From the NCBI GenBank assembly GCA_017438525.1, contig JAFRVI010000004.1, positions 79,281 to 143,280 on the forward strand: a stretch of DNA of 64,000 nt, read 5' to 3'. Positions 2-41,757 of this stretch are shown piece by piece. Position 1 is the stretch's first letter; each line of letters opens with the position of its first letter. The notes beneath the pieces were generated by a model. The model searched no databases, was not told where the DNA came from, and was given only the letters and a program-made list of their open reading frames with translations. The DNA is from Clostridia bacterium (GTDB lineage Bacteria; Bacillota; Clostridia; Oscillospirales; RGIG8002). A program made the translations under genes and the position numbers.

Positions 2-127
2 GGCGAATCCGCATGGGATATTTCAAAGAAATACGGCGCTTCTTTCAGCGAAGTAATATCCGAAAACACGCTTGACGGCGATGAAATAACAACGGCTAAA
101 ATGCTTATTATTCCGTTGAAGAGGTGA
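2..127 (+). CDS. C-terminal fragment of a LysM-domain protein (5' end outside the window)
   Basis: An open frame enters from the window edge and stops at TGA 125-127. The translation ...AWDISKKYGASFSEVISENTLDGDEITTAKMLIIPLKR fits the LysM consensus (W.I..KYG.....l...N.l......G..L.IP). Confidence 0.45.
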   Translation, partial: GESAWDISKKYGASFSEVISENTLDGDEITTAKMLIIPLKR

Positions 128-141
128 AAGGAGTGAATAAG

Positions 142-7001: not shown

Positions 7002-7002
7002 A

Positions 7003-18124: not shown

Positions 18125-18201
18125 TGGTCGGAGTGACGGGACTTGAACCCACGGCCTCTTGGTCCCGAACCAAGCGCTCTACCAAACTGAGCTACACCCC
18201 G
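18125..18201 (-). tRNA. tRNA-Pro (anticodon CGG), CCA encoded
   Basis: The reverse complement is CGGGGTGTAGCTCAGTTTGGTAGAGCGCTTGGTTCGGGACCAAGAGGCCGTGGGTTCAAGTCCCGTCACTCCGACCA. It folds as a cloverleaf with a 7-bp acceptor, GCTC/GAGC D-stem, CTTGG/CCAAG anticodon stem, TTCGGGA loop (anticodon CGG) and a TTCAAGT T-loop. Confidence 0.93.
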
Positions 18202-20810: not shown

Positions 20811-20844
20811 AAAACGCCCGAAGGGATCATCCTTCGGGCGTTTG
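20811..20844. terminator. Bidirectional rho-independent terminator closing the 31-kb minus-strand block
   Basis: Perfect 10-bp stem CGCCCGAAGG (20815-20824) / CCTTCGGGCG (20831-20840), flanked by an A-rich run on the 5' side and TTT on the 3' side. Confidence 0.72.
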
Positions 20845-25036: not shown

Positions 25037-26107
25037 CTAAAAAGTATCAATGAGTTTCGCGACGTAGCGCATAATGATCAGTACGTCCGAAACGGTAACG
25101 ACGCCGTCAAGATCGACGTCGGCGGCTTTACGCTGATTGGCGGTCGGCTTTTTGATACCGAGCGAATAGCGGAGCGCGAGCAGCGCGTCTTCGATATCGG
25201 TCTCGCCGTCCTTGTTCGGATCGCCGAGCGTATAGGTGGGCTTCACGACAGGGAGCTTGATATCCGCAATAAGCGGCCAGTGATCCGACGCCGCTCTGAT
25301 TGCCTCATCCCTGACCTGCGCGGTATGCAGACAGGTGGCTTCAACGCTGCAGAAGATATGGTCAACGCAGCCGCTGATGGGGTTCGGATCGGCATCAAAC
25401 AGAACGTTGCTGTTAGCGATATTCTGATACGGTACCTCGTCGATCGTGGCATTCATATCGCCGGTTGAAATAAACGGGCACTTGTTTTTACTGAGCCAGC
25501 TCTGCGCCTTTTTGATCAGCTCGCCCGCCTGAATGGTTCTCTGCGGAGTATTGTCGCCGCCGGAACCTTCCCAGCCGGAATTGAGGTGAGTCGAGCTTAC
25601 CGCGAACTTTCTGCCGTCGGTCTTGCTCTCGAACAGAGCTATACACATATGGCGCATCTGTATGGCGTTGGATACCGAATACTTATAAAGCTCGGTCTTG
25701 ACGACGTTGTATTTTGTCTTATCATACAAAAGCAGAGAGCAGTTTTCATCGTCCCCCTCTCTTTCGAGATCAGGATAGATAAATTCATACTTATCGCCGA
25801 GCAGTTCGCGGATACCCTCGTGCCAAAGCTTTGAGCACTCTTGCAGACCGACTACGTCCGGTTTGTAATAATTGACAAAATCGGCGAATAACTGCGGACG
25901 TGTGCCAATATTCCACGGGCTCCAGCTGAAGTCTTCCTTTGCGACGAGCACGTTATACGAAATGATTCGTATATCCGCCCCTTCGGCCAGCTGCTCGGGA
26001 TACGTCCCGACGTAGCCGTCGGCGGAAGCGGAAATCGCCGCAGCCGCGGGAAAAGCGGTCAGCAGCAGCGTCAGCGAAAGCAATACTGCAATGATTCTTC
26101 TTTTCAT
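25037..26107 (-). CDS. Secreted EEP (endonuclease/exonuclease/phosphatase) family enzyme with C-terminal dockerin (EEP copy 1)
   Basis: Signal peptide is present. EEP motifs are IISYNVL, GLQEC, STGDMN and SDHWPL. A two-segment dockerin, DPNKDGETDIEDALLALR ... DVDLDGVVTVSDVLIIMR, lies at 25040-25228. Confidence 0.8.
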   Translation of the reverse strand: MKRRIIAVLLSLTLLLTAFPAAAAISASADGYVGTYPEQLAEGADIRIISYNVLVAKEDFSWSPWNIGTRPQLFADFVNYYKPDVVGLQECSKLWHEGIRELLGDKYEFIYPDLEREGDDENCSLLLYDKTKYNVVKTELYKYSVSNAIQMRHMCIALFESKTDGRKFAVSSTHLNSGWEGSGGDNTPQRTIQAGELIKKAQSWLSKNKCPFISTGDMNATIDEVPYQNIANSNVLFDADPNPISGCVDHIFCSVEATCLHTAQVRDEAIRAASDHWPLIADIKLPVVKPTYTLGDPNKDGETDIEDALLALRYSLGIKKPTANQRKAADVDLDGVVTVSDVLIIMRYVAKLIDTF

Positions 26108-26144
26108 AGCGATACCTCCTGAAGAAAAAGAAGATAAGTATTTA

Positions 26145-29100
26145 TCAATCGTTCAGACCGGCGGCTTTGCGGAGTATCCGCAGAGCGTCGGAAACCGTTA
26201 TTTCTCCGTCGCCGTCAAGATCGGCGGCGAGACTCTGATAACCCTCCGGCTCTGCAAGCCCTACGGAAATGCGCAGCGCGGCAAGCGCGTCTGCGACGGT
26301 TATCTCCCCATCTTCGTCAAGATCCCCCATCGTGTAAGGAGGAGGCGTAGTGTCGACGACGATAAACCTAACGGTAGTTGAATACTCGTCGTATCCGTTC
26401 ACGACCTTGAGTTCATATTCGCCGGGCTCGGTCACATCGGCTTCTCCGTAGCGGCGCTCGCCGTTGAGATACGCGATATGCCCACAGTTCCAGGACGCGT
26501 GCACCTGATCGGTGTAAAGGTCGTAAATCGCTCCGTTCTCGACGCCGGTAATAACGGGAGCTCCGAGCGGTACGAATTCGAACTTGGTCGGATTGTTTTC
26601 GGCAAACGTCTGCGCATACGAACCCTCAACGCCGTAGAGCTTGACGATCTTTCTGTTTCCGCCGAAAAGCGTTCCGCTTATAGATGTGACGCTCTCGGGG
26701 ATATATACGGATTCCATAAGGTACTGTGTGCCGAGGTTGGCGCTTACGCTCGTCGTGCCTTCTCTTACGATAAGCTCTCTCGCGCGGTAGTTTCCGTTAA
26801 GCGCGGTGGAAGAAAAGGACGTTCCGTTCCCTACCGTCACGGTGCCGACGCCGGTGTTGCGGAACGCGTAAGTATTGACCGAAGTACCGTCAGGAATATC
26901 CGCGGCGCCGAGCAGTCTGCAGTCGTTGAAAGCGTACTGCCCTATCGTTTTAAGCGATGACGGGAACTCTATTTCGCGCAGCGAGCTGCACGCCTGGAAG
27001 GCGTACTGGTCGATCTTAGTAAGCGTATCAGGCAGCTTAACGGTCATATGATGCACGGTTCGGCCGTAGCCGGCAAAAGCGTACTGCCCGATAACCGTGA
27101 CGGGATATCCTTCTATTTCGTTCGGAATGACGACGTCGCGCAAACCGGAGATACAGTCGGTTATCGTGACCTGCTCGTTATTGATAGAATACATAAACTC
27201 ATCGGTCGCTGTTTTCGTCCCGTCGACAGTAAAGTCGGCCGCAGCGAACGACTTTCCCCGCTCCTCGTCAACAAGCTGCACGCGGTAGCTGCCGCCTTCG
27301 GGAATACGAACCCTGATAAAGCGGGTTAACTTCAGATAATTTGCGTCCGCTTCAAGTGAAAGCAGATTATCCTTATCAAGAGGAATTATCACTTCCGTAT
27401 CGTCGTCAAGGTTCTTCACCCTGACGGACGGATGCTCGTAATAAGGCGAGTTGACGGTTTCAAGATATACGTAGCCGTTACGGTTTATGGTAACGGTATC
27501 CGAGAACTCGTGACCGTCCGCCGAAACCCTGATGAAATCGTAAATAACCGTAGGCCTCGGACCGATCGCGGTCATCATTTTGTCTATCATGTGAGGCGTC
27601 GCGTACTTCATGTAGGCAACCTTCGAGGCGATCCTGTAATACGGCGAAGAGGGACTGAGCCGCGCGACCGCCGCCTGCAGAGCGGATTTGTCATACTCCT
27701 TCGGAAGCGCCCACTTCTGCAGCGAATGCGGATAGGTGCGCTCACCGAAGAAAACGTATGAGCTGTCGGGCGTGAATTTGATGCGCGAAACGATATACCC
27801 CTCGAGGTTGGCGTCGGTCTCTCCCGCTTTCAGCGTTTCGAGATACGTGCCGTCGGACGCAAAGAGCTTTGCGCCGCCGTCGTAAGACGCGACGACTATA
27901 TATTTGCCGTTCGGCGAATACGCGGCTTCTCTGATAACGTTGCCGAAGCCGCCGAGCAGCGAAACTAGTTCACCGCTTTCAACGTCGAACAAGCGGGCGG
28001 CGCCATAGGTGGACGTGCAGAGTATATTCTTATCGTCGGGCGAAAACTCGAGGCGTCTTACCGAACCGGTGTTGACGTTGTTGAGTTTCTTTATAAGCGT
28101 CTTGCTCTCGACGTCCCAAAGGCAGACGACTCCGTTATCGTCCGAGGTGGCGAGAAGGCGTCCGTCCGATGAGAAATCCGCGCCGCGGATCGCTCTGACG
28201 TGGCCTTCGGCAAGGTGAGCGTATTCGGTCCAGTCGGCAACGTTGTAGACAAAAGTACCGTTGCTCGTCGTCGTAACCGCGACTTTTGAACCGTCGTCTG
28301 TGATCGCTATGAAGCGCGGGTCGCTGCCAACGTCGATTTCCTGCAGTTTGGCGCCGGTGGTCGCGTTAAAAACGCGGAACTTCCATTTCCCGGTGCCGTT
28401 TGAATACTTCTGGGAGCCGCCGTTAAATCCGCCCACTATCAAGGCGCTGCTGTCTTTAGTGAATACCACGCTCTCCTGAATGACCGCGCCGTTGTATATC
28501 CTGCGCGGCGCCTTTGTGTAATCGGAGGTATCGAAAACCGCGATATTCCCCTGCGTGGATGCGACCGCAAGCTTGCTGCCGTCGGGAGAATAAAGAACGC
28601 GCAGCGCTCTGTCGAATCCGGTGGAAAGCACGTGCTTCGTCACGTTCGTGACCGGATCCATGATATAGACCTTCTTCATGTGGTCGGCGGAAGCGATCTC
28701 GGTGCCGTCGGGCTTGACGTCCGTCGGGAAGTTTATATCCCAGTAATCGTTGACGGCGACTGCGTTGAGACCGGTGGAATAGTTTACGCTTTCATCGGTC
28801 GTGTAGTCCTCGGTGCCGTCGGTCAGCTCGCCCGCTTCAAGGAAGCAGCGGACGTAGTCGACGTCGATGACGTATTCTTTCTCGGCGCCCCAGGATTCGT
28901 CGACCGTATTGCCCCATGAATCTGATGTCCTTGCGCGCGGTGTGTTATTGAAAACAATATATCTGGCGGTATCGCCGAAGGCAAACTTCTTTCCTTCACT
29001 GTTATAAAGAAGCGAATTGTACTGCATTCCGTCGAAGTAGTACCTGATCATATCGCGGTCCATTTCAAGACCGTAGGTGTGGTAATCGTCGCTCAGGTAC

Positions 29101-30854
29101 TTCTCGCCGTATCCGTTGATATTCATATATATAACCTTGGCCCAGTCCTTTTTGCCCTCGTCATCCGTCCAGTGGACGGTGCCGATGACCGTGCCGTTTT
29201 TGGCTATATCATCTTCGACGACCATTTCCATTATGTCGACTTCGCCGGCGCCCATATTCATCATATCGGTCGGCATAAGCCAGAACGCCGGGAACTGACC
29301 AGTGCCGTACGCCAGCTTTGCGCGGATCTCGATCTTGCCGTAGCCGAACGCAAACTTGCCGCTGGTGTTCATATACGTTCCGGACATTTCATAAGCGTCG
29401 TATCTGCCGTATCTGCCCTTGAAATGCATATTGCCGTCGGAAACGTCGATAAGGTCGTCGTCATCCGGATAAATCGCGCCGTCGGAATAACCGTCGTTCA
29501 CGTTCCACTTGGTGCGGTCGAGCGAGTTGCCGTCAAACTCGTCGCTCCAGCTCTGAACGTATTCTTCTTCAACGACTTTATACAGATAGAACTTTTTATA
29601 CGTCGAACTGGTAGTGGCTTTAACGGTTTCACCCGAAACGGTTAACCTTCCGACATTGCGTACCTGAATAGTCGCCTTTCCACCCGTAATGCTGATAGAC
29701 CACTCTTGGCGCGTGTTATTGAGGTTCGGTTCTTTCGCCTCGATACTTGTGCCGGATTCCGAAATCGTAAGCACGTTTGTGCTCGATTTATTGATTATCC
29801 TAAACGCACCGTTGCCGGAGGGAGACATTGAAAGCTGCCACATCTGCGTGCGGTCGCCTTCCCTGTTTTCTTCAAGCGAGTATTTGAGCGAACTGTCTTC
29901 GATCGCGAGAGTATTGTCTCCCCATCTGATAGCCGTTTCAGGAACGGGAGGCCCGAGTGTTATCGCTTTACCCGAGGAAGACTCAATGATTTTATAGTAT
30001 GCGTTATTGACTATCTGACTGCGGGCGGTGATCTGCGTCTCGGAATAAGCGGTCGCCGCGCTGCTTTCGAGTATCTCATTATAAGCGTTCAGATCCGCAA
30101 CCGAAAACGACGTACCGTTCGACTCTATACGGATATAGTTCATGCTGCCGTCCTTCGCGAGCGGCGAATCGCCTGCTGCAGTAAAGATTTCAAACGGGAT
30201 ATAGATATAACCGAATCCCCATACAACAATATCAGAGGCGGTGTAAGTATAGTTATCCTCGGCCGAACGCAGTCCTATTGTAAAGCTGAAAACGTTGCCG
30301 TCATTCGGCGCGAGCCACAGTTTCAGACCATCCGCCTTCGACATATCAAGGCCGAACGGAGACTGACCGGCGACGCCGCTTCTCGACGCGCCGTTGGAAA
30401 GGACGGTCCCGTTTTCATCTCCACTCACCGAGACGGAAAACTCAACGCCTTCCGGCTTATGCTCTTTGTCGAGAACGGGAGCCGAGGAGGACTCGTTCAT
30501 CGAGGCAAGATCCTCGGACGTCCAGCCGTTGAAGCCGTTAAGCTGAATAAGCTCGACGTCATGCATCGGCTCGAGCATATTCTCGGCGTTTTTGACCTCG
30601 TTAAATGCGGCTTCGCGTTCTTCGTCGGTCGCAAGGTCGTTATACGCCGCAAAAGTAGCTTCCCATCTCTCGATGCGGTCGGCGAGGTATTTTCTCGACT
30701 GCTCGCTGTAACCTTTATAAAGAAGGGATCTGGCGTAAGCATATTCGTCGATCGCTTCCGGCTCGTCAGCGCCGACGGTCACCGCCGCCGAAAACGGCAG
30801 CATAGAAAGCGCGAAAGCAAGCGTAAGCAGTATGGCGATGAGTCTTCTTTTCAT
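26145..30854 (-). CDS. Giant secreted multidomain protein, paralogue 1 of 4: ricin-type lectin + GH16 + WD40/PD40 propeller + BspA-type LRR + dockerin
   Basis: 1,569 aa. Signal peptide MKRRLIAILLTLAFALSMLPFSA. Two QxW motifs (QMWQLS, QEWSIS). GH16 elements WSDEFDG...GKIEIRAKL...FPAFWLMP...GEVDIMEM. Propeller repeats YSPDGSKLAVAS, FSSDGRLLATSDDNGVVCLWDV and FSPDDKNIL...ARLFDV. LRR elements IEGYPVTVIGQYAF and LPDTLTKIDQYAFQACSSLREIEFP. The dockerin is at the C-terminus. A GGAGG RBS precedes the start. Confidence 0.85.
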   Translation of the reverse strand: MKRRLIAILLTLAFALSMLPFSAAVTVGADEPEAIDEYAYARSLLYKGYSEQSRKYLADRIERWEATFAAYNDLATDEEREAAFNEVKNAENMLEPMHDVELIQLNGFNGWTSEDLASMNESSSAPVLDKEHKPEGVEFSVSVSGDENGTVLSNGASRSGVAGQSPFGLDMSKADGLKLWLAPNDGNVFSFTIGLRSAEDNYTYTASDIVVWGFGYIYIPFEIFTAAGDSPLAKDGSMNYIRIESNGTSFSVADLNAYNEILESSAATAYSETQITARSQIVNNAYYKIIESSSGKAITLGPPVPETAIRWGDNTLAIEDSSLKYSLEENREGDRTQMWQLSMSPSGNGAFRIINKSSTNVLTISESGTSIEAKEPNLNNTRQEWSISITGGKATIQVRNVGRLTVSGETVKATTSSTYKKFYLYKVVEEEYVQSWSDEFDGNSLDRTKWNVNDGYSDGAIYPDDDDLIDVSDGNMHFKGRYGRYDAYEMSGTYMNTSGKFAFGYGKIEIRAKLAYGTGQFPAFWLMPTDMMNMGAGEVDIMEMVVEDDIAKNGTVIGTVHWTDDEGKKDWAKVIYMNINGYGEKYLSDDYHTYGLEMDRDMIRYYFDGMQYNSLLYNSEGKKFAFGDTARYIVFNNTPRARTSDSWGNTVDESWGAEKEYVIDVDYVRCFLEAGELTDGTEDYTTDESVNYSTGLNAVAVNDYWDINFPTDVKPDGTEIASADHMKKVYIMDPVTNVTKHVLSTGFDRALRVLYSPDGSKLAVASTQGNIAVFDTSDYTKAPRRIYNGAVIQESVVFTKDSSALIVGGFNGGSQKYSNGTGKWKFRVFNATTGAKLQEIDVGSDPRFIAITDDGSKVAVTTTSNGTFVYNVADWTEYAHLAEGHVRAIRGADFSSDGRLLATSDDNGVVCLWDVESKTLIKKLNNVNTGSVRRLEFSPDDKNILCTSTYGAARLFDVESGELVSLLGGFGNVIREAAYSPNGKYIVVASYDGGAKLFASDGTYLETLKAGETDANLEGYIVSRIKFTPDSSYVFFGERTYPHSLQKWALPKEYDKSALQAAVARLSPSSPYYRIASKVAYMKYATPHMIDKMMTAIGPRPTVIYDFIRVSADGHEFSDTVTINRNGYVYLETVNSPYYEHPSVRVKNLDDDTEVIIPLDKDNLLSLEADANYLKLTRFIRVRIPEGGSYRVQLVDEERGKSFAAADFTVDGTKTATDEFMYSINNEQVTITDCISGLRDVVIPNEIEGYPVTVIGQYAFAGYGRTVHHMTVKLPDTLTKIDQYAFQACSSLREIEFPSSLKTIGQYAFNDCRLLGAADIPDGTSVNTYAFRNTGVGTVTVGNGTSFSSTALNGNYRARELIVREGTTSVSANLGTQYLMESVYIPESVTSISGTLFGGNRKIVKLYGVEGSYAQTFAENNPTKFEFVPLGAPVITGVENGAIYDLYTDQVHASWNCGHIAYLNGERRYGEADVTEPGEYELKVVNGYDEYSTTVRFIVVDTTPPPYTMGDLDEDGEITVADALAALRISVGLAEPEGYQSLAADLDGDGEITVSDALRILRKAAGLND
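26148..26333 (-). other. Dockerin module of paralogue 1
   Basis: Two EF-hand-like segments: GDLDEDGEITVADALAALR and ADLDGDGEITVSDALRILR. Confidence 0.8.
26625..27197 (-). other. BspA-type leucine-rich repeat (LRR_5-like) region of paralogue 1 (residues ~1220-1410)
   Basis: Repeating (I/L)P..(V/L)..I...AF..C..L..(I/V) units, for example LPDTLTKIDQYAFQACSSLREIEFPSSLKTIGQYAFNDCRLL. Confidence 0.75.
27705..28757 (-). other. WD40/PD40-type beta-propeller region of paralogue 1 (residues ~700-1050)
   Basis: Seven to eight ~40-45-aa repeats, each with an SPDG/SSDG/TDDG turn followed by a hydrophobic strand and x(F/W)(D/N)V endings. Confidence 0.7.
28839..29567 (-). other. GH16 catalytic module of paralogue 1 (residues ~430-672)
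   Basis: WSDEFDG start. ExDxxE catalytic motif EVDIME is encoded at 29226-29243. The module ends ...YVIDVDYVRCF. Confidence 0.8.
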
Positions 30855-30912
30855 AGTTTACCTCCGTTTCTTTTGCGGAAAAGACGAAGTAATAATTTGA
30901 GTTGATTGACGA

Positions 30913-33900
30913 TTATTGTTCAAAGGGAGCGTCAATCTTCGCGGCGACGCGAAGGATGCGGAGCACGTCGGAAACTGTCACTTCGCCGTCTTTGTCGACG
31001 TCGGCGGCCTCCGCCTGATAGCCCTCCGGCTCGACGATCCCGAGTGCTATGCGGAGCGCCGTGAGCGCGTCGGTAACCGTGACTTCTCCGTCGTCGTCAA
31101 CATCACCAATAGTGTACGGAGGAGGCGTCGTATCGACGACCGTGAAGGTCACGGTCGTTTTATACTCGTCGTAGCCGTTTATAACTTCGAGCGTGTATTC
31201 GCCGGGCTCGGTCACGTCGGCGTGTCTGTAGCACGCTTCGCCGTTGAGGTATCCGATGTGTCCGTTTTCCCACGTCGCTGAAACGGGCGCTTCATAGAGG
31301 TCGTAGGTCGCGCCGTCTTCGACTCCGTGAACGATGGGAGCGCCTATCGGAACAAATATAAACTTTGTCGGATACGACTCGGCGTAAGTCTGCGCATAGC
31401 TTCCCTCGACGCCGTAGATCTTGGCAAGGTATTTTGTGTGCAGATCGCTTACGTTATTGTCTACAAAACTGTAAATACCGCCGCTTATGGAAGTTACGCT
31501 CTCGGGAATATAAACAGCTTCGAGAAGATACTGAGAAGAAATATTGAGCGAGAGACTTTGTATTCCGTCAGCAACGATTATTTCTCTTACGCGCGACATA
31601 CCGGAAAGAGCGCCGCTTGCGATACCCGATCCGGAGTTGAGCTTTATAGTTCCGACGCCGGCGTTGTTAAAAGCGTTGGAACTGACGGTCGTGCCGGCGG
31701 GAATATCAACGACGCTGAGCAGTCTGCATCTGCTGAAAGCGTACTGTTCTATCTTTTCAAGTCCTGCGGGGAACTTTATCTCGCGCAGAGACCAGCAGTT
31801 ATAGAATGCGTAACTGCCGATAACCTTAAGCGTGTCGGGAAGCGTAACGGCCATATGCATAACGTTGGTTCCGTAGCCGTCGAAAGCATAAGAACCGATC
31901 TTGGTGACCGGGTACCCCTCTATCTCACTCGGAACAACGACGTTGCGCCTTCCGGAGATGCACTTCGTTATCGTGACCTCTCCGTCCTTTATAGAATAGA
32001 GGAATCCTTCCGCGGCGGTAGCGTCACCGTTGACGGCAGCGCTTGCCTTCGGGAACGCCTTGTTGGAATCAAGGCCGACAAGTTCGAACTCGAATACGCC
32101 TGCTTCCGCCATCTTGACCTTGAAATCGTAACGGCAATACGCCTCAATTTCGTCGTTTTCATTATAATCCATAAAGAATCCGGCGTCGTCCGCGGGAATA
32201 AGCTCGCTTGTGCCGTCATCGGTATTCGTAATCTTAAGCGCGAGATCCGCGTATTCCGGAGACGCTCCTGCAGTAACGTAGACGAACGCGTTTTTATTGA
32301 CGGTAACGCTCGGCGGCGTCGTGTATCTGTCGGGAGAAACGCTGATGAATTCGTCGGTCTTCGCCGTTCCGCCGATGCCGGTATACGCCTTGTAGATCAT
32401 CTGCGGAGTAGCATACTTCAAGCCGGCAATCTTCGCGGCGTAAGCGTATTCGGGCGTGGTCTTGTCCGCGCAGTTGCTCATGGCAAGCTTAAGCTGCGTT
32501 TTGTCGTACTGCTTAGGAAGATCCCACTTCTGCACCGCGTACGGATCGGTACGAGTGGTGAACATAACGTAATCGTCCTTATACGGCGAAAACTTGATGC
32601 GGGAAAGAATGAAACCCTCGCCGTTCTCGTCGGTCTCTCCCGCTTTCAGCGTTTCGAGATATGTGCCGTCTGCGGCGAAAAGCTTCGCGCCGCCGTCATA
32701 GGAAGCGACGGCGATATATTTGCCTTCCGTCGAATAGGTCGCCTCGCGGATGACATTGCCGAAGCCGCCGAGCAGCGAGATAAGCTCTCCGCTCTCGACC
32801 TCAAACAGACGCGCGGCGCCGTAGGTCGCGGTCGCGAGGACGTTCTTATCGTCCGGCGAGAAGACTACGCGCCTTACCGAGCCGGAGTTGACGTTGTTGA
32901 GCTTCTTGTTGAGCGAAAGATCGGAAACGTTCCAGACGTTTATGACGCCCTTGTCGTCGGAAGTCACGAGCAGGCTGCCGTCCGAAGAAAAGTCGGCGCC
33001 GCGGATCGCTCCGTCGTGGCCTTCGGTTATATGGCCGTATTCGCTCCAGTCGGAAACGTTATAGATGAACGTGCCGTTGCTTGTTGTAGTTACCGCTACT
33101 TTAGAACCGTCGTCGGAGAGCGCTATGAAGCGCGGATCGCTGCCGACGTCTATATCCTGAAGCTTCGCGCCGCTCGAGGCGTCAAAGACGCGGAAATGCC
33201 ACTTTTCAGTTTTGCCGCCGGTCTGCGGATTCTGATACGCCTGCGAGCCGCCGTTGTAACCGCCGACTATCAGGTATTTACTGTCCGGCGTAAACAGAAC
33301 GTTCTCTTGAATAACGGCGCCGTTATAGATTCTGACCGGCGTGTTATCGTAATTGGAAGTATCATAAATCTGTATGCATCCCTGCGTATTTGCGACAGCG
33401 AGTTTCGTGGCATCCGGCGAATACAGAACGCGGAAGGATCTGGTGTACTTAGACATCGCAGAAGCAAGGTTGATGTATTTGAGTGTTTCTCCGGTATACG
33501 GATCGAATATGTAGAGATTTGAGAAATGATCCGCCGCGGCGCCTTCGTTGCCGTAGCAGTTGATATCCATCGGCATATTGATATCCCACGCGTCGTTGGT
33601 GGCAACGGCCTCTATGCCGGATGAATAGTTGACGCTGTCGTCAGTCGTGAAGTCGACGGTATTATCGCTCATTTCACCGGCTTCAAGATAGCATCTGACG
33701 TAGTCTATCTGGGTTTCGTATTTATCCTCGAGACCCCACGCTTCTCTGACGATGCTTGCGCCGTCGCCTTTGGTGGAGTTATTTATGATGATATATCTTG
33801 CGATATCTCCGAAGGCGAATTCCTTGCCTTCGCTGTTTATCACGAGCGAATTGTACTGCATCCCGTCAAAGTAGAATCTTATCTGATCGCGATCCATCTC

Positions 33901-35691
33901 CACGCCATAGGTGTGGAATTCATCGCTGAGATACTTTTCTCCGTAACCGTAGATACCCATATAATGGACTTTTGACCAGTGAGTATATCCGTCGTCGGTA
34001 GTCCAGTGTATCGTGCCGATCTGCGTGCCGTTTTCCCTGATATCATCCGTGACGACGATCTCCATAATATCGATCTCGCCGCCGCCCATATTCATCATAT
34101 CGGTCGGCATCATCCAGAACGCTGGGAACTGACCGTTGCCGTAAGCAAGCTTTGCGCGTATCTCGACCTTGCCGTAACTCAAAGCGAACCTGCCGCTGGT
34201 GCTCATATAAGTGCCCTGCATTTCAAAAGCGCCGTATCTGTCAGGTGTGACGGTCATATTCAGCATACCGTCCGAAACCTTGAGCTGCTCGTCGTCATCG
34301 GTGTGCATAGTTGAAACTGTTCCGCCGAACCAGAAGCCGTCATCAACGGACCACTTATTGCGGTCGAGCTCATCGCCGTCGAATTCGTCGCTCCAGCTCT
34401 GAACGTATTCGGTTTCCACCGTCTCATAAAGCTCAAACTTTTTGTACGCGGACCCTGTTGTTGCCTTTACGGTGTCCCCGGCGGTGGTAAGCTTGCCGAC
34501 GTTACGCACTTGTATAGTAGCTTTGCCGCCGGAAATGCTTATTGACCACTCTTGAAGGGTATTGTTGAGATTCGGCTCTTTCGCTTCAATGCTGCCTCCG
34601 GATCCGGAGATGGTGAGCGTGTTCGTACTCGACTTATTGATAAACCTGAAGGTTCCGTTGCCGGACGGAGACGGCGAAAGCTGCCACATCTGAGTGCGGT
34701 CGCCTTCCCTGTTTTCCTGAAGGGAATACTTGAGATTACTGTCTTCAATGGCAAGAGTATTATCCCATCTTATCGCAGTTTCAGCGACCTCCGGTCCGAG
34801 CGTAATGGCCTTGCCGCTCGTGGGCTCGATTATTTTATAATAAGCGTTGTTGTTGATCTGATTGCGTGAAACGACCTTCGTTTCGGAATAAGCCGTGCGG
34901 GTGCTGCCTTCGATGATCTCATTGTAGGCGTTGAGATCCGCAAATCTGAAAGAGTCAACGCCTACTGCACGGATAGACAGCATATTCAAACTGCCGTCCT
35001 TGATAATGCTATCGCCTTTGAAGCAGTCAAAAGGAACGTGGATATATCCGGTTTCCGCAACGTAAACATCTTCTGCCGTTGAAAAACTGACGCCGTCGTA
35101 GGAAAGGTATCCGAGCACAATAGTCAGTGTCGCGGGCGCATCGACAGAAACCCAAAGCTTCAATCCGTCCGCCTTAGTCATATCCTTCCCGAATGGCGAA
35201 GCCGTGTGCATGGCGTTAATATCGGGCGTTTCATTCGAGAAGAAGGCGCTGCCGTCACTTCCGGGAACAGATATCGAGAAAGCGGCTTCTGCAGGTTTAT
35301 TTACAGCGTCAATGACCGGGACGCCGCTGCAAGCCGTCATCATAGAAAGCGCTGCTTCGTCCCAGACATCGATCCCGTCGAGCGCAATCTGCTCATAGGC
35401 ATACATCTGCGCAAGCGAATCGACCGCAAAGCGAAGCGCTTCACTCGCGGCGGCAACGTCGTCTTCAGTCGCATAATCGTTATATACGACTGCTTCCGCA
35501 CGCTGCACACGGTCGGCAAGATATTTGCGCGACTGCTCGCCGTAGCCCTTGTAGATAAGCGCTTTTGCGCTCATCACCTGCTCCTGAAGCTCCGAAGTGT
35601 CAATAGCTTTAGCTGAAATGACGCCCGAAAGAGTCGCAAGTGACATAAGAAGGGTTAGAGTAAGGATAATCGCTATAAGCTTTCTTTTCAT
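30913..35691 (-). CDS. Giant secreted multidomain protein, paralogue 2 of 4 (same architecture)
   Basis: Collinear with paralogue 1. GH16 motif EIDIME is at 34060-34077 and the dockerin at 30916-31110. ATG 35691 with a GGAGGG RBS is preferred over the TTG at 35709. Confidence 0.85.
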   Translation of the reverse strand: MKRKLIAIILTLTLLMSLATLSGVISAKAIDTSELQEQVMSAKALIYKGYGEQSRKYLADRVQRAEAVVYNDYATEDDVAAASEALRFAVDSLAQMYAYEQIALDGIDVWDEAALSMMTACSGVPVIDAVNKPAEAAFSISVPGSDGSAFFSNETPDINAMHTASPFGKDMTKADGLKLWVSVDAPATLTIVLGYLSYDGVSFSTAEDVYVAETGYIHVPFDCFKGDSIIKDGSLNMLSIRAVGVDSFRFADLNAYNEIIEGSTRTAYSETKVVSRNQINNNAYYKIIEPTSGKAITLGPEVAETAIRWDNTLAIEDSNLKYSLQENREGDRTQMWQLSPSPSGNGTFRFINKSSTNTLTISGSGGSIEAKEPNLNNTLQEWSISISGGKATIQVRNVGKLTTAGDTVKATTGSAYKKFELYETVETEYVQSWSDEFDGDELDRNKWSVDDGFWFGGTVSTMHTDDDEQLKVSDGMLNMTVTPDRYGAFEMQGTYMSTSGRFALSYGKVEIRAKLAYGNGQFPAFWMMPTDMMNMGGGEIDIMEIVVTDDIRENGTQIGTIHWTTDDGYTHWSKVHYMGIYGYGEKYLSDEFHTYGVEMDRDQIRFYFDGMQYNSLVINSEGKEFAFGDIARYIIINNSTKGDGASIVREAWGLEDKYETQIDYVRCYLEAGEMSDNTVDFTTDDSVNYSSGIEAVATNDAWDINMPMDINCYGNEGAAADHFSNLYIFDPYTGETLKYINLASAMSKYTRSFRVLYSPDATKLAVANTQGCIQIYDTSNYDNTPVRIYNGAVIQENVLFTPDSKYLIVGGYNGGSQAYQNPQTGGKTEKWHFRVFDASSGAKLQDIDVGSDPRFIALSDDGSKVAVTTTSNGTFIYNVSDWSEYGHITEGHDGAIRGADFSSDGSLLVTSDDKGVINVWNVSDLSLNKKLNNVNSGSVRRVVFSPDDKNVLATATYGAARLFEVESGELISLLGGFGNVIREATYSTEGKYIAVASYDGGAKLFAADGTYLETLKAGETDENGEGFILSRIKFSPYKDDYVMFTTRTDPYAVQKWDLPKQYDKTQLKLAMSNCADKTTPEYAYAAKIAGLKYATPQMIYKAYTGIGGTAKTDEFISVSPDRYTTPPSVTVNKNAFVYVTAGASPEYADLALKITNTDDGTSELIPADDAGFFMDYNENDEIEAYCRYDFKVKMAEAGVFEFELVGLDSNKAFPKASAAVNGDATAAEGFLYSIKDGEVTITKCISGRRNVVVPSEIEGYPVTKIGSYAFDGYGTNVMHMAVTLPDTLKVIGSYAFYNCWSLREIKFPAGLEKIEQYAFSRCRLLSVVDIPAGTTVSSNAFNNAGVGTIKLNSGSGIASGALSGMSRVREIIVADGIQSLSLNISSQYLLEAVYIPESVTSISGGIYSFVDNNVSDLHTKYLAKIYGVEGSYAQTYAESYPTKFIFVPIGAPIVHGVEDGATYDLYEAPVSATWENGHIGYLNGEACYRHADVTEPGEYTLEVINGYDEYKTTVTFTVVDTTPPPYTIGDVDDDGEVTVTDALTALRIALGIVEPEGYQAEAADVDKDGEVTVSDVLRILRVAAKIDAPFEQ

Positions 35692-35750
35692 AATCGTCCC
35701 TCCGTTCAAAGCGTTGAGAATAATTAAATGATAGTACTTAATTATAGGGT

Positions 35751-38700
35751 TTATCTGTTTGCTATGCCCGCGGCAATTCGCAGAATCCTCAAAGCGTCGG
35801 AAACTGTCACGGCACCGTCGCCGTCAACGTCGGCAACGGCGAGCGCATCTCCTTCCGGTTGATCGGCAAGACCGACAGCCATACGGAGTGCGGCAAGAGC
35901 GTCCGCAACGGTAACTTCATCGTCGCCGTCTATGTCACCGATGAGCACGTAGGCGATTATCGTGACGTCAAAGGTGTCGGTGAATCCGTTATAGGTAACA
36001 GTCAGTGTCTGCGATCCTACGACGGTGTTATCAAAGCCATCGACCATTTCAGCCGTGAGATCGACTTCTTCGGATGAACCGTTATCGTAAGTGACCGTTA
36101 CCTTTCCGCCGGACAGGTCGAGCTCTTCCCTGCCCTCAACGTATTCTACCTTTTCGGGCGCGGTAACTTCGATGCCGGTGATCTGCGGCATTGCGGTCAA
36201 TTTGAAATCGCCGATGAGCGGATAGTGATCGGACGTTCCCTGGAGGTCAGCGTCGGTCACGCGCGCGGTGAAAAGGCATTCGGTGCCTACGGTGTGGAAG
36301 ATGTGGTCGACAACGCCGGGATCCGGATGATCGTCGGCGTCGACAAATACTCCGCTGTTCACGATAGTATTATAAGGAATATCGCCGGCCGGGCAGTTCA
36401 TATCACCGGTGGAAATGAAGGGGCAGTTCCACCGGTTGATATATTCTCTCGCCTTAACGACGAGCTCACCCGCCTGAATGTTTCTTTGCTCGGTGTGATC
36501 GTCGTCGTCCCAGCCCGGATCGAGGTGCGTAGAGCTGACTATGAATCTTCTGCCGTCGCTGATGCGCTCGAAAACGCCGATGTCGATAAGGCGGAATCTC
36601 GGGCTGTTGCCTATCGTGTAGGAATAGACTTCGCTCGCGATAACGCGGAGCTTGGTCTTGTCATATATAATCGGGCTGCAGTTCATACCTGCCTGACCGC
36701 CGAAATCGGGGTTGAGGAACTCGTAGGTATCGCTGAGCAGACGGTTGATGCCCTCGTGCCACTTCTCGGAGCATTCCTGCAGACCGACGACGTCGGGCTT
36801 GTAGTAATCGATAAACGCCTTGAACTTCTCAGGTCTTTCGCCGATCACCCAGGGGCTCCAACTGAAGTCTTCCTGTGCAACGAGCACATTGAAAGATACT
36901 ATTCTGATATCGGCGCCTTCAACGAGCTGCTCGGGGTATTCGCCGAAATAACCGCTGCCGTCTCTGTGAATGATCTCAACGTCGTCGATATATATGGCGC
37001 TGCCGTCGGGGGAGCTGCCCGCGGAGAAGTTGACGTACCAGTCGGAATAGTCGCCGCTGTTGAATGCGATGGCATAGCGTCTCCATTCGTCAGTCAACGC
37101 TATCGAATTGGAACAAAGCTTCTCCTTGTCGCCGAAAACGTAGCTGTGATACTGCTTCGTTCCGCCGGCTTCGGAGTCCCACTTCGCCCAGAAGATCAAG
37201 ATGTATTCGGTGTTCTTTGTGAGAATCAGACCGGTCTGCTTGGCAACGCTCTGATAGTAGCTGCTGCCCATTAGGCGAAGCGAATGTCCGCCTTCGTGAG
37301 CAACGTCGCTGAGAGCGGTCGTGCCGCCGGTGGTCCAGGGAGAGTATCCGTTCTCTTCAAATCCGCCGTTTCTAATAAGTATCTCGTCGGGCTTCTCTTC
37401 AAGTACGACGTCATCGATTATCATACCGGCTCCGTCGGGCGAGCTGGAGGCGGAGAAGTTGATATAGCAGGAAGTAACGTCGCCGCTGTTAAATGAAATT
37501 GTGTGGAAAGTCCACTCAGAAGGTATCGCTATGTACTCGCTCACGATCTTGGTTCCGCCCGCGTCATAAACTCCGGCGTGGTATCCCTTCGAGCCCTGGG
37601 CGGTCTGATCGCCCTTCGCCCAGAAGGAAAGGATATAATCGGTGTTCGGCTTTATGGTGATGCCGCTCTGCCTTGCGGCTTTAGCATATGAACCCGTAGC
37701 GAGAAGGCAAAGCGCCTTTTCGCCCGAATGAGCGTCCACGGTGACTGCGGTGTTCTCGTAAAGCGTCCAGGGGTCTACGGTCGCGGCTTCAAAGTTGCCG
37801 TTCTTAACAAGCGTTGTGTCTGCAGAAACTTCCATAGCAAAATCATCAACTACCACGGCGCTGCCGTCGGGCGAGCTGCCGGCTGAAAAATGGATGTAAC
37901 ACTCGGTAAAGTCACCGCTGTTGAATCTGACGGTATAGAGTGTCCAATCATTAGTGATATCTATCGTCTTGTCGGTAAACTTGTTATCCTGTCCGGAGCT
38001 TCCGCCGAAAACGTAGGCGTGATATGGCTTTGCTCCGGTGCTGGTCTCGGCGGCTTTTGCCCAGAAGGTGTAAACATAATCGGTATTCGGCTCAATCTTC
38101 AATCCCATCTGCCTGGCAACCTTCGCATAATAAGATGAGCCGGAGAGGATCAGCGCCTTGCTTCCGGTATGAGCGTCGGAAGTTATCGCGCTGCCGTTGA
38201 AGATTTCCCACGGGTCGATGGCGGCGTTCTCAAAACCGCCGTTTTTGATTATAGCTGCATCGACAACGACCTTCTCTTCCATAAACAGATCATCGATGAC
38301 GATAGCAGTGCCGTCCGGCGAGCTGCCGGTCGAGAAATTGATATAGCAGGAAGTAAAATCTCCGCTGTTGAACTCAATGGTATACTGCCTCCATTCAGCA
38401 GTGGGAGAGAAAGAATTATCAGCAAGCTTGTTGCTGCTGTTGCCGAAAACGTAGGCGTGGTAGCCCTTCGTACCGGTGTTGTCGGAAGCCGCCTTCGCCC
38501 AGAAAGTGAATGTGTAGTCCGTATTTGCATTAAGGGCGATGCCTTCTTGCCTTGCAACCTTTGTGTAGTTGCCGGATCCGGCAGGCACCTTCAGGCAGAG
38601 CGCTTTGCTTCCCTCGTGCGCTTCGGTAGTGAGCGCGGTTTCGGAATAAATGAGCCACGGATCGATGGTGGCGTTCTCAAAACCGCCGTTCTTAATCATC

Positions 38701-39698
38701 GCGTCGTCAACGACGACCTTCTCTTCCATAAACAGATCGTCTATGATAAGCGCGGTGCCGTCGGGCGAGCTGCCGGTCGAGAAGTTTATGAAGCAGGAAG
38801 TGAAATCGCCGCTGTTGAACTCAATGGTGTACTGCATCCACTCGGTAGTTACGGCGATGGAGTTCTGCGCAAGTCTGTTGCTGCTGTCGCCGAAAACGTA
38901 GGCGTGATAGCCCTTCGTTCCGGTGTTGTCGGAAGCCGCCTTCGCCCAGAAGGTGAAAACGTAGTCCTTATTCGCCTCGATAGCTATGCCGTTCTGTCTG
39001 GCGACCTTGGTGTAGTTCGCGGAGCCGGCGGGAGCTTTAAGGCAGAGCGCCTTGGCGCCCTCGTGCGCTTCCGCAGTGAGCGCGGTTTCGGAATAAACGA
39101 GCCACGGATCGATGGTGGCGTTCTCGAAGCCGCCGTTCTTGATCATGGCGGTGTCGGGATCCTCGACCTTCTGCATAACGAGGTCGTCAATAACGGCGAT
39201 ACCGCCGTCCGGCGCGCTGGGAGTGGATATATTGATATAGCACTCGGTAAAATCGCCGCTGTTGAAATCGACCGTGTATTCTCTCCAATCGGAGGTAAGG
39301 CCGAAATAAACGGTTCCTATCTTGGTAGCGCCGCTTTTATCCATAATATACATATGGAAACCCTTGGAAGCGCCCTGGGCGGAATTCGACGCGACCTTCG
39401 CCCAGAAGGTAAAGGTGTAATCCTTATTCGCCTCAAGAGCGATACCGGTCTGTCTGGCTACCTTTTCGTATTTGTTTGAGCCGAAAAGACTCAACGCGTT
39501 GCTGCCGGTATGCGCTTCGGTAGACAGCGTCGTGCCGGAATAGATGAGCCATCCGTCCGTGCCGTCTTCAAAACCGCCGTTGACGATAAGGTTATCGCCG
39601 GTGGTCTTCGCCGCCGCAGGCAGCGACACGGCGCAAAGCGTTGCGATCATAGTGAACGCAATAAGCGCCGCAAGGATTCTTTTGATGCCGGTTTTCAT
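35751..39698 (-). CDS. Secreted protein: six tandem CBM4/9-like modules + EEP catalytic domain (copy 2) + Ig-like (Big_3-like) module + dockerin
   Basis: 1,315 aa with a signal peptide. It carries six ~145-150-aa units, each starting (I/V)(K/R/V)NGGFE...W and ending SSPDG....IDD. EEP motifs are VSFNVL, GLQEC, STGDMN and SDHYPL (36198-36947). The Ig-like module is ITGIEVTAPEKVEYVEG..LDLSGGKVTVTY (35955-36185). The dockerin is at 35754-35945. Confidence 0.85.
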   Translation of the reverse strand: MKTGIKRILAALIAFTMIATLCAVSLPAAAKTTGDNLIVNGGFEDGTDGWLIYSGTTLSTEAHTGSNALSLFGSNKYEKVARQTGIALEANKDYTFTFWAKVASNSAQGASKGFHMYIMDKSGATKIGTVYFGLTSDWREYTVDFNSGDFTECYINISTPSAPDGGIAVIDDLVMQKVEDPDTAMIKNGGFENATIDPWLVYSETALTAEAHEGAKALCLKAPAGSANYTKVARQNGIAIEANKDYVFTFWAKAASDNTGTKGYHAYVFGDSSNRLAQNSIAVTTEWMQYTIEFNSGDFTSCFINFSTGSSPDGTALIIDDLFMEEKVVVDDAMIKNGGFENATIDPWLIYSETALTTEAHEGSKALCLKVPAGSGNYTKVARQEGIALNANTDYTFTFWAKAASDNTGTKGYHAYVFGNSSNKLADNSFSPTAEWRQYTIEFNSGDFTSCYINFSTGSSPDGTAIVIDDLFMEEKVVVDAAIIKNGGFENAAIDPWEIFNGSAITSDAHTGSKALILSGSSYYAKVARQMGLKIEPNTDYVYTFWAKAAETSTGAKPYHAYVFGGSSGQDNKFTDKTIDITNDWTLYTVRFNSGDFTECYIHFSAGSSPDGSAVVVDDFAMEVSADTTLVKNGNFEAATVDPWTLYENTAVTVDAHSGEKALCLLATGSYAKAARQSGITIKPNTDYILSFWAKGDQTAQGSKGYHAGVYDAGGTKIVSEYIAIPSEWTFHTISFNSGDVTSCYINFSASSSPDGAGMIIDDVVLEEKPDEILIRNGGFEENGYSPWTTGGTTALSDVAHEGGHSLRLMGSSYYQSVAKQTGLILTKNTEYILIFWAKWDSEAGGTKQYHSYVFGDKEKLCSNSIALTDEWRRYAIAFNSGDYSDWYVNFSAGSSPDGSAIYIDDVEIIHRDGSGYFGEYPEQLVEGADIRIVSFNVLVAQEDFSWSPWVIGERPEKFKAFIDYYKPDVVGLQECSEKWHEGINRLLSDTYEFLNPDFGGQAGMNCSPIIYDKTKLRVIASEVYSYTIGNSPRFRLIDIGVFERISDGRRFIVSSTHLDPGWDDDDHTEQRNIQAGELVVKAREYINRWNCPFISTGDMNCPAGDIPYNTIVNSGVFVDADDHPDPGVVDHIFHTVGTECLFTARVTDADLQGTSDHYPLIGDFKLTAMPQITGIEVTAPEKVEYVEGREELDLSGGKVTVTYDNGSSEEVDLTAEMVDGFDNTVVGSQTLTVTYNGFTDTFDVTIIAYVLIGDIDGDDEVTVADALAALRMAVGLADQPEGDALAVADVDGDGAVTVSDALRILRIAAGIANR
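36960..39602 (-). repeat. Six tandem in-frame coding repeats (~430-450 bp each) encoding CBM4/9-like modules
   Basis: Repeat boundaries from the translation: residues 33-182, 183-331, 332-480, 481-627, 628-770 and 771-913. Units 2 and 3 are nearly identical at protein level and share long identical DNA stretches. Confidence 0.9.
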
Positions 39699-39752
39699 GT
39701 TTTTGCCTCCTGAAAATATATTTAATTATTTTACTCGCAATATAAGCAGCCG

Positions 39753-40586
39753 TTATTCCAAATTGAAATCGGCGTATAAAGGAAGGTGGTCCGAAGCGCC
39801 TTTGACGCTCTCGTCGTCGCCGAGCGTGACGCCGAGCGATTTCGCGCCGGAGGTGTGAAAGATGTGATCGACGACGTGCGGAAGCGGAGCGGCATCGGCG
39901 TCGCTGAAAACTCCGTTTTCCGTCAGAGCTTTGTATTCGGGCTTATCCGGCGTTATGTTCATATCGCCGGTGGAGATATACGGGCAACCGTATTCCTCAA
40001 CGAAACGCTTTGCGACCCCGATGAGCTCATCGATCTGCACGAGGCGTTCGGCGGTCCTGTCGCCCGGGTACTCCGAATCGAGATGCGTGCTCGAAACGGC
40101 AAAACGCTTACCGTCGGATATACGCTCGAAAACGCCGACGTCGATAAGACGCATACGCTCGTTGTTTGAAACGGAATAGATATACTGTTCGCTCGCAATA
40201 AGGCGGAGTTTTTTCACGTCGAACATCAAACCGGTGCAGCTGCCGTCCGTAATGTCGCCGAAGTCCGGCTCTACGAAATCGTATTCTTCTTTAAGCTGTT
40301 TTCTGAACGCCGAATACCAGCCGCGGCTTGCCTCCTGGATGCCGATAACGTCCGGTCTGACGCGCAGGATATACTCGACCGCGCCGCTCGGACGATCGCC
40401 CAAAGGGGTGCCCCAATCGTAGTCGTCGTTGTCTACGAGCAGGTTATAAGACATAACCCGCAAAACCGCGTTTTCCGACTCCGGATTTGGTTTTTTCCCT
40501 GTTAAAAAACACGTCATTATTCCGAATCCCAACAAAAGCAGAATTACTATAGTCAACACGATATGGTTGACAAACGGCTTTTTCAT
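39753..40586 (-). CDS. Membrane-anchored EEP family enzyme (copy 3, N-terminal TM helix, no dockerin)
   Basis: N-terminal TM segment IVLTIVILLLLGFGIMTCFL. EEP motifs are MSYNLL, GIQEA, STGDMN and SDHLPL. The central segment RLIDVGVFERISDGKRFAVSSTHLD is nearly identical to copy 2. Confidence 0.8.
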   Translation of the reverse strand: MKKPFVNHIVLTIVILLLLGFGIMTCFLTGKKPNPESENAVLRVMSYNLLVDNDDYDWGTPLGDRPSGAVEYILRVRPDVIGIQEASRGWYSAFRKQLKEEYDFVEPDFGDITDGSCTGLMFDVKKLRLIASEQYIYSVSNNERMRLIDVGVFERISDGKRFAVSSTHLDSEYPGDRTAERLVQIDELIGVAKRFVEEYGCPYISTGDMNITPDKPEYKALTENGVFSDADAAPLPHVVDHIFHTSGAKSLGVTLGDDESVKGASDHLPLYADFNLE

Positions 40587-41716: not shown

Positions 41717-41757
41717 TTGGTGTTCCTCCAGACTATTTTTCAAATATTATTTATAAA

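Follow-up and report, generated by a model that had tools for sequence, protein, structure and literature searches.

What do three copies of one endonuclease/exonuclease/phosphatase (EEP) domain, each delivered in its own way, do among the beta-glucanase genes of a rumen bacterium? The question is raised by a stretch of 64,000 nucleotides (hereafter the window) on contig JAFRVI010000004.1 of assembly GCA_017438525.1. It derives from an uncultured rumen Clostridia lineage, deposited as 'MAG: Clostridia bacterium' (MAG, metagenome-assembled genome) with proteins under generic names. Because SpoIVA is encoded in the window, the host is taken to be a spore-forming Firmicute. Judging from profile searches, predicted folds and gene context, the three EEP proteins most likely remove phosphate from a cell wall or matrix rich in glycans and are less likely to cut DNA.

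An earlier note, made from the bare sequence of this stretch, had described three EEP genes with a common set of motifs. Open reading frame (ORF) prediction, Pfam and alignment confirmed the three ORFs at the same window coordinates, all on the minus strand (Table 1), and the listed motifs in every copy: SYNVL, SFNVL or SYNLL, then GLQE or GIQE, STGDMN and SDH.PL, to which STHL and VDHIF can be added. With the gathering score of 24.5 bits as the criterion for membership, all three belong to the Pfam family Exo_endo_phos (PF03372; 45.0, 28.8 and 44.0 bits for copies 1, 2 and 3). The domains are paralogues, as their similarity is far beyond chance, with pairwise BLASTP identities of 56% (1e-106), 45% (4e-76) and 40% (4e-66). 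All three copies keep the full set of catalytic and metal-binding residues and are predicted to be catalytically competent. N17, E55, H139, D182, N184, D214, D240 and H241 (numbered as in the copy 1 domain) are invariant in alignments of both 18 and 40 sequences, and H215 is invariant in the larger one. The ratios of nonsynonymous to synonymous substitution rates (dN/dS) of the catalytic domains, 0.07-0.10, indicate strong purifying selection, although they are rough values with dS near saturation. The domains are acidic, with isoelectric points (pI) of 4.5-4.9 and net charges of -12 to -20.

The picture of one catalytic core in three targeting formats beside beta-glucanases, also drawn by the earlier note, was borne out by Pfam, by the reading of signal peptides and helices, and by neighbouring genes of glycoside hydrolase family 16 (GH16). 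Copy 1 is a signal peptide-EEP-dockerin protein, copy 2 has six carbohydrate-binding modules (CBMs) ahead of its EEP domain and an Ig-like module and a dockerin behind it, and copy 3 has an N-terminal membrane helix. The signal peptides of copies 1 and 2 read as classic ones, with a basic n-region, a hydrophobic core and ASA or AAA cleavage motifs, the ASA site of copy 1 being predicted by eye from the amino acids. Both D-x-D/N-x-D-G calcium-binding loops are visible in each of the two dockerins, which score 39.5 bits (copy 1) and 24.9 bits (copy 2) against Dockerin_1 (PF00404; cut-off 22.9). In sequence type the copy 2 dockerin agrees with those of the neighbouring GH16 proteins, so these proteins probably bind the same cohesins; no cohesin was found among the proteins of the 64-kb window.

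The CBM modules of copy 2 resemble characterised CBMs only weakly in sequence (1e-04). In an AlphaFold2 (AF2) model of the array (pLDDT 81), however, they are type-B beta-sandwiches of a CBM4/16/22-like fold, the best Foldseek matches being CBM4-2, CenC CBM4 (26% identity), CBM16, CBM22 and CBM61. Modules 2 and 3 (38280-39146, minus strand) are 85% identical, whereas the other pairs reach 43-60%, which indicates that one was recently copied in tandem within the array. The CBM array changes far more quickly from MAG to MAG than does the catalytic domain: amino acid identities are 54-77% against 84-90%, and dN/dS is 0.18-0.25 for the array and 0.08-0.10 for the copy 2 EEP domain (compared with L001 and L002).

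A neighbour-joining tree resolves three orthologue clades, with copies 1 and 2 as sisters and copy 3 as the outgroup to both. The three formats are therefore old paralogues that have been maintained within the lineage. They form stable orthologue clades in related rumen MAGs, except for one anchorless sister lineage of copy 3. NCBI annotates copy 3 (MBQ6552143.1) as a protein of 233 amino acids that starts at M45 and so lacks the helix. The long, anchored form is supported by the conservation of its N-terminal 40 codons in orthologues (dN/dS ~0.10 against the L001 orthologue), and close orthologues keep the basic N-flank and the hydrophobic helix at the protein level. More positive charges precede the helix than follow it, so by the positive-inside rule copy 3 is predicted to be a type II protein, N-in and C-out, with its catalytic domain outside. 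A sister subclade at 63-71% identity (L002, P0008-P0011) has no hydrophobic segment, and stop codons lie upstream in L002. Its members (L002, 9962-10729, and P0008-P0011) bear neither anchor nor signal peptide, at an unchanged syntenic position. The membrane anchor noted earlier for copy 3 thus stands for the long form and its close orthologues but fails in this subclade, and the 'surface format' of copy 3 is lineage-specific, not fixed. As the anchorless orthologues occupy the same position, a switch between extracytoplasmic and cytoplasmic location would have occurred within one orthologue group. A lipoprotein form of copy 3, based on its 'IMTC' sequence, was rejected, as the cysteine is not conserved among orthologues.

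Which kind of EEP enzyme the domains represent was approached by profile and by fold. Single EEP sequences gave only weak matches in the PDB. A first profile (A2) held two Parachlamydia-type sequences, P0018 and P0019, which pulled the second homologue search towards that uninformative group; a clade-only profile of 18 sequences (A4) was used thereafter. Searched against PDB sequences, A4 ranked BVU_0621 (3G6S; 2.6e-28, 102 bits) first and BT3783 (3MPR/4C1R; 1e-21) second, followed by nocturnin (3e-16), 3L1W (1e-12), TDP2 (6e-12), PDE12 (3e-11) and CNOT6L (3e-08). Sphingomyelinases and beta-hemolysin gave partial matches over the C-terminal half (4e-06 to 1e-04), and ExoIII matched at 1e-04. 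The AF2 model of the copy 1 domain (pLDDT 91) adopts the four-layer alpha/beta-sandwich expected of an EEP fold. Foldseek returned 198 PDB matches for it at E<=1e-3 with EEP structures on top, the best being 3G6S (1.2e-17, TM 0.75), nocturnin and BT3783 (4C1R/3MPR); TM-scores of these neighbours were 0.72-0.75 at ~20% identity. No chain of DNase I, CdtB or an inositol 5-phosphatase was present among the 54 A4 matches at E<=10 or among the top 50 fold matches. Placed in this way, an approximation of the phylogeny that the earlier note had proposed, the domains fall outside the DNase I, CdtB and INPP groups and touch sphingomyelinases only marginally. By sequence profile and model they are nearer to the EEPs of Bacteroides polysaccharide utilisation loci (PULs), 3G6S and BT3783, than to other characterised EEP clades, although the fold margins are narrow.

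Of these two, BT3783 offers a functional comparison. It is an EEP-fold, Mg-dependent mannosyl-6-phosphatase of the B. thetaiotaomicron yeast-mannan PUL and acts on phosphorylated yeast mannan and N-glycans (Cuskin et al. 2015, PMC4978465). It has the fold and the full catalytic set, is the best characterised profile match and one of the top fold matches, and offers a parallel in role, being an accessory remover of phosphate encoded amid glycoside hydrolases directed at the wall glycan of a foreign organism. The EEPs of the window therefore do not fall into a uniform subfamily foreign to extracellular polymers, and BT3783, as the nearest characterised relative, would rather suggest phosphate bound to a glycan. 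The term phosphodiesterase, which the earlier note had used, is not established, since this nearest characterised homologue is a monoesterase. Identity between BT3783 and the window EEPs is ~20%, and ~20 residues that the Bacteroides enzymes have inserted ahead of the VDH motif are missing from the window clade. Whereas BT3783 consists of one domain, belongs to a Gram-negative bacterium and has alpha-mannanases as neighbours, the core in the window comes from a Gram-positive spore-former that presents it by way of a dockerin, six CBMs or a membrane helix, next to GH16 enzymes of the beta-1,3-glucanase type. BVU_0621, from Bacteroides (Phocaeicola) vulgatus, came top in both searches (22% identity) and has no targeting modules; it is an uncharacterised structural-genomics target on which a search of a limited literature collection gave nothing. 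The next-best neighbours, nocturnin, CCR4 (CNOT6L), PDE12 and TDP2 (3e-16 to 3e-08; identity 14-21%), have the same EEP sub-architecture. They are intracellular eukaryotic enzymes with nucleotide or nucleic-acid substrates and no glycan-targeting modules; nocturnin is a monoesterase on NADP(H), while TDP2 and CCR4 are diesterases.

The three EEP genes lie in an array of twelve co-directional minus-strand genes that begins at ~52.1 kb, ends at 20.8 kb and has no gap longer than 58 nt, in the order DUF4886, two GH16 giants, a Zn-ribbon gene, copy 3, copy 2, two further GH16 giants, copy 1, lgt, folD and an alkaline phosphatase. The GH16 domains of the giants have the ExDxxE motif, and their best matches are laminarinases or endo-beta-1,3-glucanases (1e-18; 4dfs and 3azx for the giant at 26145-30854). 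The relatives are MAGs from the rumen of buffalo and goat. They keep the order of giant GH16 protein, Zn-ribbon protein, short EEP, CBM-EEP and giant GH16 protein, which in a further assembly runs on through GH16 giant, EEP-dockerin, Lgt, FolD and alkaline phosphatase; synteny, the closing alkaline phosphatase included, holds in three related rumen MAGs. Like the EEP proteins, cellulosomal accessory dockerin proteins (CE esterases, LRR proteins, serpins and peptidases) combine a signal peptide, a catalytic module and a type I dockerin with optional CBMs, and they too co-occur with dockerin-bearing glycoside hydrolases. An inventory of R. flavefaciens FD-1 mentions no phosphatase or nuclease module among its dockerin proteins (PMC2930009). 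No description of an EEP-dockerin or EEP-CBM enzyme was found in the limited collection of literature searched, in which Cuskin et al. 2015 was the only relevant paper on EEPs of this kind.

Relatives of the window EEPs extend well beyond this locus: an exhaustive profile search retrieved 421 representative clusters at E<=1e-30 and 8099 at E<=1e-10. Among the closest relatives, domain orders include six CBM_4_9 modules ahead of an EEP domain and, outside the window's lineage, two such modules ahead of one, an EEP domain fused to a CE2 esterase, or three CBM_4_9 modules followed by EEP, CE2 esterase, Big_3 and choline-binding repeats. None of their architectures includes OB-fold, HhH or LTD domains, the typical partners of nucleases. 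Among the matches listed, dockerin-EEP combinations are confined to this rumen lineage. Tandem-EEP relatives have two to seven matched stretches per protein. Three to seven of them occur in P0155 (1108 aa) and P0157 (3270 aa), and P0174 (2676 aa) has eight CBM9 modules followed by two EEP domains. In another lineage (L006; contig DRR337758_41411, 273-4808), a transmembrane-anchored EEP, a secreted dockerin protein and a leaderless EEP stand in a row, so the arrangement of several EEP formats around a dockerin protein recurs. That dockerin protein is a 959-aa ORF, or ~890 aa from a likely internal start, and its dockerin is its only Pfam domain.

Taken together, the catalytic set, the fold, the ranking of BT3783 and 3G6S, the CBM and CE2 fusions, the laminarinase-type GH16 neighbours, the common dockerin type and synteny support reading the EEPs as accessory glycan-phosphate esterases of a cellulosome-like system that degrades beta-glucan or cell walls. 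We hold this reading with roughly even confidence. In such a system, three Mg2+-dependent EEP phosphoesterases would hydrolyse phosphate esters, either monoesters or phosphodiester-linked substituents, on a glycan or glycoconjugate, and removal of the phosphate would let the co-displayed laminarinase-type GH16 enzymes proceed. Copy 1 would dock onto a cohesin scaffold. Copy 2 would dock too, while its six type-B CBM modules would keep it on a polymeric glycan, their multivalency providing avidity. Copy 3, at the membrane and in this lineage facing outwards, would act on released soluble products near the site of uptake. Any monoesters left over could fall to the secreted alkaline phosphatase encoded last in the array. 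We infer from the comparisons the class of substrate, whether the chemistry is that of a monoesterase or a diesterase, co-assembly on one scaffold and co-transcription.

Several observations weigh against accessory glycan-phosphate esterases. Transfer of a substrate from BT3783 and 3G6S is weak, as identity is ~20%, TM-scores are 0.72-0.75 and the fold scores of nocturnin and TDP2 are similar; the activity of the window clade is a prediction. The sister lineage of copy 3 has no export signal of any kind, so that this orthologue would be cytoplasmic. The distant relatives P0104 and P0014 stand in housekeeping gene contexts. Because lgt, folD and the Zn-ribbon gene, which are housekeeping genes, are interspersed, the array looks like cassettes inserted into a conserved backbone and not like a clean operon, and adjacency within it is no proof of a functional unit. 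Finally, we know of no phosphorylated glycan that regularly accompanies beta-1,3-glucan in the rumen. A more specific version, in which the array would be a cellulosome-like machine for the walls of rumen eukaryotes (anaerobic fungi, yeasts) instead of plant fibre, seems to us quite unlikely. The EEPs would then form a new class of glycan phosphodiesterases, delivered by scaffold and CBMs, that cut bridges of the phosphomannan or glycosylphosphatidylinositol (GPI)-remnant type and unmask beta-1,3-glucan for the GH16 giants.

The EEP superfamily includes many secreted nucleases, and the three proteins could instead degrade extracellular DNA (eDNA) or RNA in the matrix of rumen biofilm or digesta, whether to feed on the nucleotides or to make that matrix looser, with dockerins and CBMs serving only to retain them at the substrate-attached surface. 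Fold neighbours that act on nucleic acids (TDP2, CCR4, PDE12) would suit such a role, the downstream alkaline phosphatase would finish nucleotide mineralisation, and the best, though weak, NCBIfam similarities are to nuclease models. These are ExeM/NucH (NF033681; 27.1 bits against a cut-off of 300; best E among the 18 clade members 3.7e-08), MnuA (NF045851; 17.9 against 185; 1.1e-06) and Xth/ExoIII (TIGR00633; 19.2 against 99; 2.9e-07). All scores are 5 to 11 times under the curated cut-offs, and all 18 clade members stay far below them too, so the window EEPs are not members of these families; the likeness is at superfamily level only, although ExeM/NucH enzymes are extracellular too. The A4 profile leaves DNase I and CdtB structures unmatched, and the fusion partners of the relatives are CBMs and CE2 esterases instead of nuclease-type domains. 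The acidity of the domains argues in the same direction, a weak point, as some DNases are acidic too. We consider nucleases unlikely, though still a serious rival. The earlier note had speculated about attack on a mixed matrix of polysaccharide and eDNA, or on a phosphodiester-linked glycan such as that of another organism's wall. Its eDNA half gains nothing from these scores and the acidic domains, while its other half, a phosphorylated or phosphodiester-linked glycan or a foreign wall, is favoured indirectly by the CBM and CE2 fusions and by the GH16 neighbours with their common dockerin type.

Lipids are another conceivable target. Head-group phosphodiesterases of the sphingomyelinase, inositol-phosphoceramide or phospholipase C type could act on fungal, protozoan or plant membranes, or on glycosyl-inositol-phosphoceramides (GIPCs), once GH16 enzymes have opened the wall, and the glycan head groups of GIPCs might explain the CBM modules. 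Sphingomyelinase and beta-hemolysin structures are indeed detected by A4, and two of the 18 clade members touch the sphingomyelinase model TIGR03395 at 1e-03. That similarity does not amount to a whole-domain match; the structure matches cover the C-terminal half only and are at least 15 orders of magnitude weaker than those of BT3783 and 3G6S, and sphingomyelinases are absent from the top 50 fold matches, which makes a lipid substrate highly improbable. General scavenging of organophosphate, with the EEPs and the alkaline phosphatase as a broad-specificity surface module for phosphate acquisition that lies beside GH16 genes by chance, appears very unlikely as well. It would account for the signal-peptide alkaline phosphatase in the same co-directional array, which is kept there in a relative, and for the interspersed housekeeping genes that speak against a clean functional operon, and it would agree with the monoesterase activity of BT3783 and nocturnin, the characterised enzymes nearest to the clade. 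However, six tandem CBMs and the dockerin type of the GH16 giants argue for action on a polymer, the window yielded neither a Pho-type regulator nor any other regulatory element (Rfam gave no regulatory RNA there), and the rumen is generally phosphate-replete.

Several neighbours of the EEP genes have unusual features of their own (Table 1). The four giants combine a signal peptide, a ~270-aa N-terminal domain without assignment, RicinB, GH16, WD40, an unassigned region, LRR_5 and a dockerin. Such a layout suggests fusions of an adhesin with an enzyme, perhaps more surprising than the EEPs themselves. The alkaline phosphatase has ~400 C-terminal amino acids without domain assignment, and its tail (DLNGDGRVDVADALIALRF) contains one dockerin-like calcium loop and helix, a 'half-dockerin' that stays below the Dockerin_1 threshold (E=0.037). 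It is retained at the end of the syntenic array, and its orthologue in one relative (GCA_016648615; 937 aa) contains CBM_4_9. CBM modules common to the window's alkaline phosphatase and copy 2 were considered and rejected, as BLASTP found nothing and Pfam no CBM_4_9. The Zn-ribbon gene (40595-41743, minus strand; 382 aa), 8 nt upstream of copy 3 and syntenic in three MAGs, encodes a tail-anchored protein with several Zn-ribbons and one membrane helix, at the C-terminus. It was rejected as a specific EEP partner, being a member of an uncharacterised Clostridia family that is well conserved and very widespread, with >3000 matches at 55-65% identity. A Christensenellaceae genome has it beside a Band_7 gene with no EEP there, which also counts against a specific partnership.

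At the head of the array, the DUF4886 protein (51300-52043, minus strand; 3e-69) lacks a signal peptide; the N-terminal 'GNSFS' is similar to block I of SGNH hydrolases. It may be a cytoplasmic esterase, which would echo the EEP-CE2 esterase fusions of the relatives. By consensus scans, a weak kind of evidence, the best promoter-like site lies upstream of this gene, and the array's only strong terminator-like hairpin on the minus strand follows the alkaline phosphatase. Directly upstream of the array, 52222-59625 (minus strand) encodes a multi-pass membrane protein of 2467 aa with DUF3131, Glycoamylase (GH144-like) and GH94 supersandwich and catalytic domains, a layout that resembles cyclic beta-1,2-glucan synthase (Cgs/NdvB-type). 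Cyclic beta-1,2-glucans of other bacteria can bear phosphoglycerol substituents.

Table 1. Positions in the window of the three EEP genes, their parts and other features (aa, amino acids; KD, Kyte-Doolittle hydropathy).
Feature	Position	Strand	Evidence and remarks
Copy 1 gene, 356 aa, signal peptide-EEP-dockerin	25037..26107	-	Exo_endo_phos 1.4e-11; Dockerin_1 (PF00404) 6.4e-10; NCBI MBQ6552139.1, generic name
Copy 1 signal peptide, aa 1-29, MKRRIIAVLLSLTLLLTAFPAAAAISASA	26021..26107	-	Hydrophobic segment, KD 2.32
Copy 1 EEP catalytic domain, aa ~45-285	25253..25975	-	Pfam, motifs, AF2 model, Foldseek
Copy 1 type I dockerin, aa 294-349	25061..25228	-	Pfam and PDB dockerin matches; diverges more than the array's other dockerins
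Copy 2 gene, 1315 aa, signal peptide-6xCBM_4_9-EEP-Big_3-dockerin	35751..39698	-	NCBI MBQ6552142.1, 'carbohydrate binding domain-containing protein'
Copy 2, six tandem CBM4/9-type modules, aa 33-915	36954..39602	-	Pfam CBM_4_9 (PF02018) 1.3e-77, 259 bits, six stretches
Copy 2 EEP catalytic domain, aa 918-1167	36198..36947	-	Pfam aa 935-1158, 1.3e-06
Copy 2 Big_3 Ig-like module, aa 1181-1246	35961..36158	-	Pfam 2.1e-10
Copy 2 type I dockerin, aa 1254-1305	35784..35939	-	Pfam 2e-05; sequence type common to the GH16 giants' dockerins
Copy 3 gene, 277 aa, N-terminal membrane helix-EEP	39753..40586	-	Exo_endo_phos 2.9e-11, sole Pfam domain
Copy 3 hydrophobic anchor, aa ~9-29, behind basic N-flank	40500..40562	-	KD 2.8; single N-terminal helix
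Copy 3 EEP catalytic domain, aa ~41-277	39756..40466	-	Pfam, motifs; dN/dS 0.07 against L001
Giant dockerin protein, 1569 aa, RicinB, laminarinase-type GH16, WD40 propeller, LRR_5/BspA	26145..30854	-	Pfam; EVDIME catalytic motif
Second giant GH16-WD40-LRR-dockerin paralogue, 1598 aa	30913..35709	-	Pfam
Third giant GH16-WD40-LRR-dockerin paralogue, 1580 aa	41758..46500	-	Pfam
Fourth giant GH16-WD40-LRR-dockerin paralogue, 1565 aa	46555..51252	-	Dockerin line-up
Signal-peptide alkaline phosphatase, 789 aa, last gene of the array	20861..23230	-	PF00245 5e-40; possible partner
Intrinsic-terminator-like hairpin, 13-bp stem, 8 GC, T-run	20812..20843	-	After alkaline phosphatase; consensus scan, weak
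GHL10 (glycosyl hydrolase-like 10) protein	5709-7118	-	Elsewhere in window
SpoIVA	124-1620	+	Elsewhere in window
tRNA-Pro, single	18125-18201

A glycan-locus EEP phosphatase was already known in BT3783. What is new here is the delivery of an EEP domain by a dockerin, by six CBMs and by a membrane anchor, in a Gram-positive bacterium and beside laminarinase-type giants. Phosphate esters on glycans block glycoside hydrolases, and to our knowledge BT3783 is the only well-documented bacterial answer to glycan phosphate with an EEP fold. The three genes are a lead that can be tested as a possible new auxiliary activity, a function that their comparison with known enzymes suggests. Should the proteins be nucleases instead, they would be the first to be delivered by dockerins and CBMs, of some interest for the biology of biofilm matrices. 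If they are glycan phosphoesterases, Gram-positive cohesin-dockerin systems too would recruit such accessory activities, in three modes of delivery, at scaffold, substrate and membrane. The at least 421 clusters found at E<=1e-30, often fused to CBM or CE2 modules, would then be a candidate new class of carbohydrate-active auxiliary enzymes, and the diet of this rumen lineage might include the walls of fungi or other walls with beta-1,3-glucan. If the fungal-wall version were true, an 'auxiliary phosphoesterase' activity would be defined for the polysaccharide-degrading complexes of Gram-positive bacteria.

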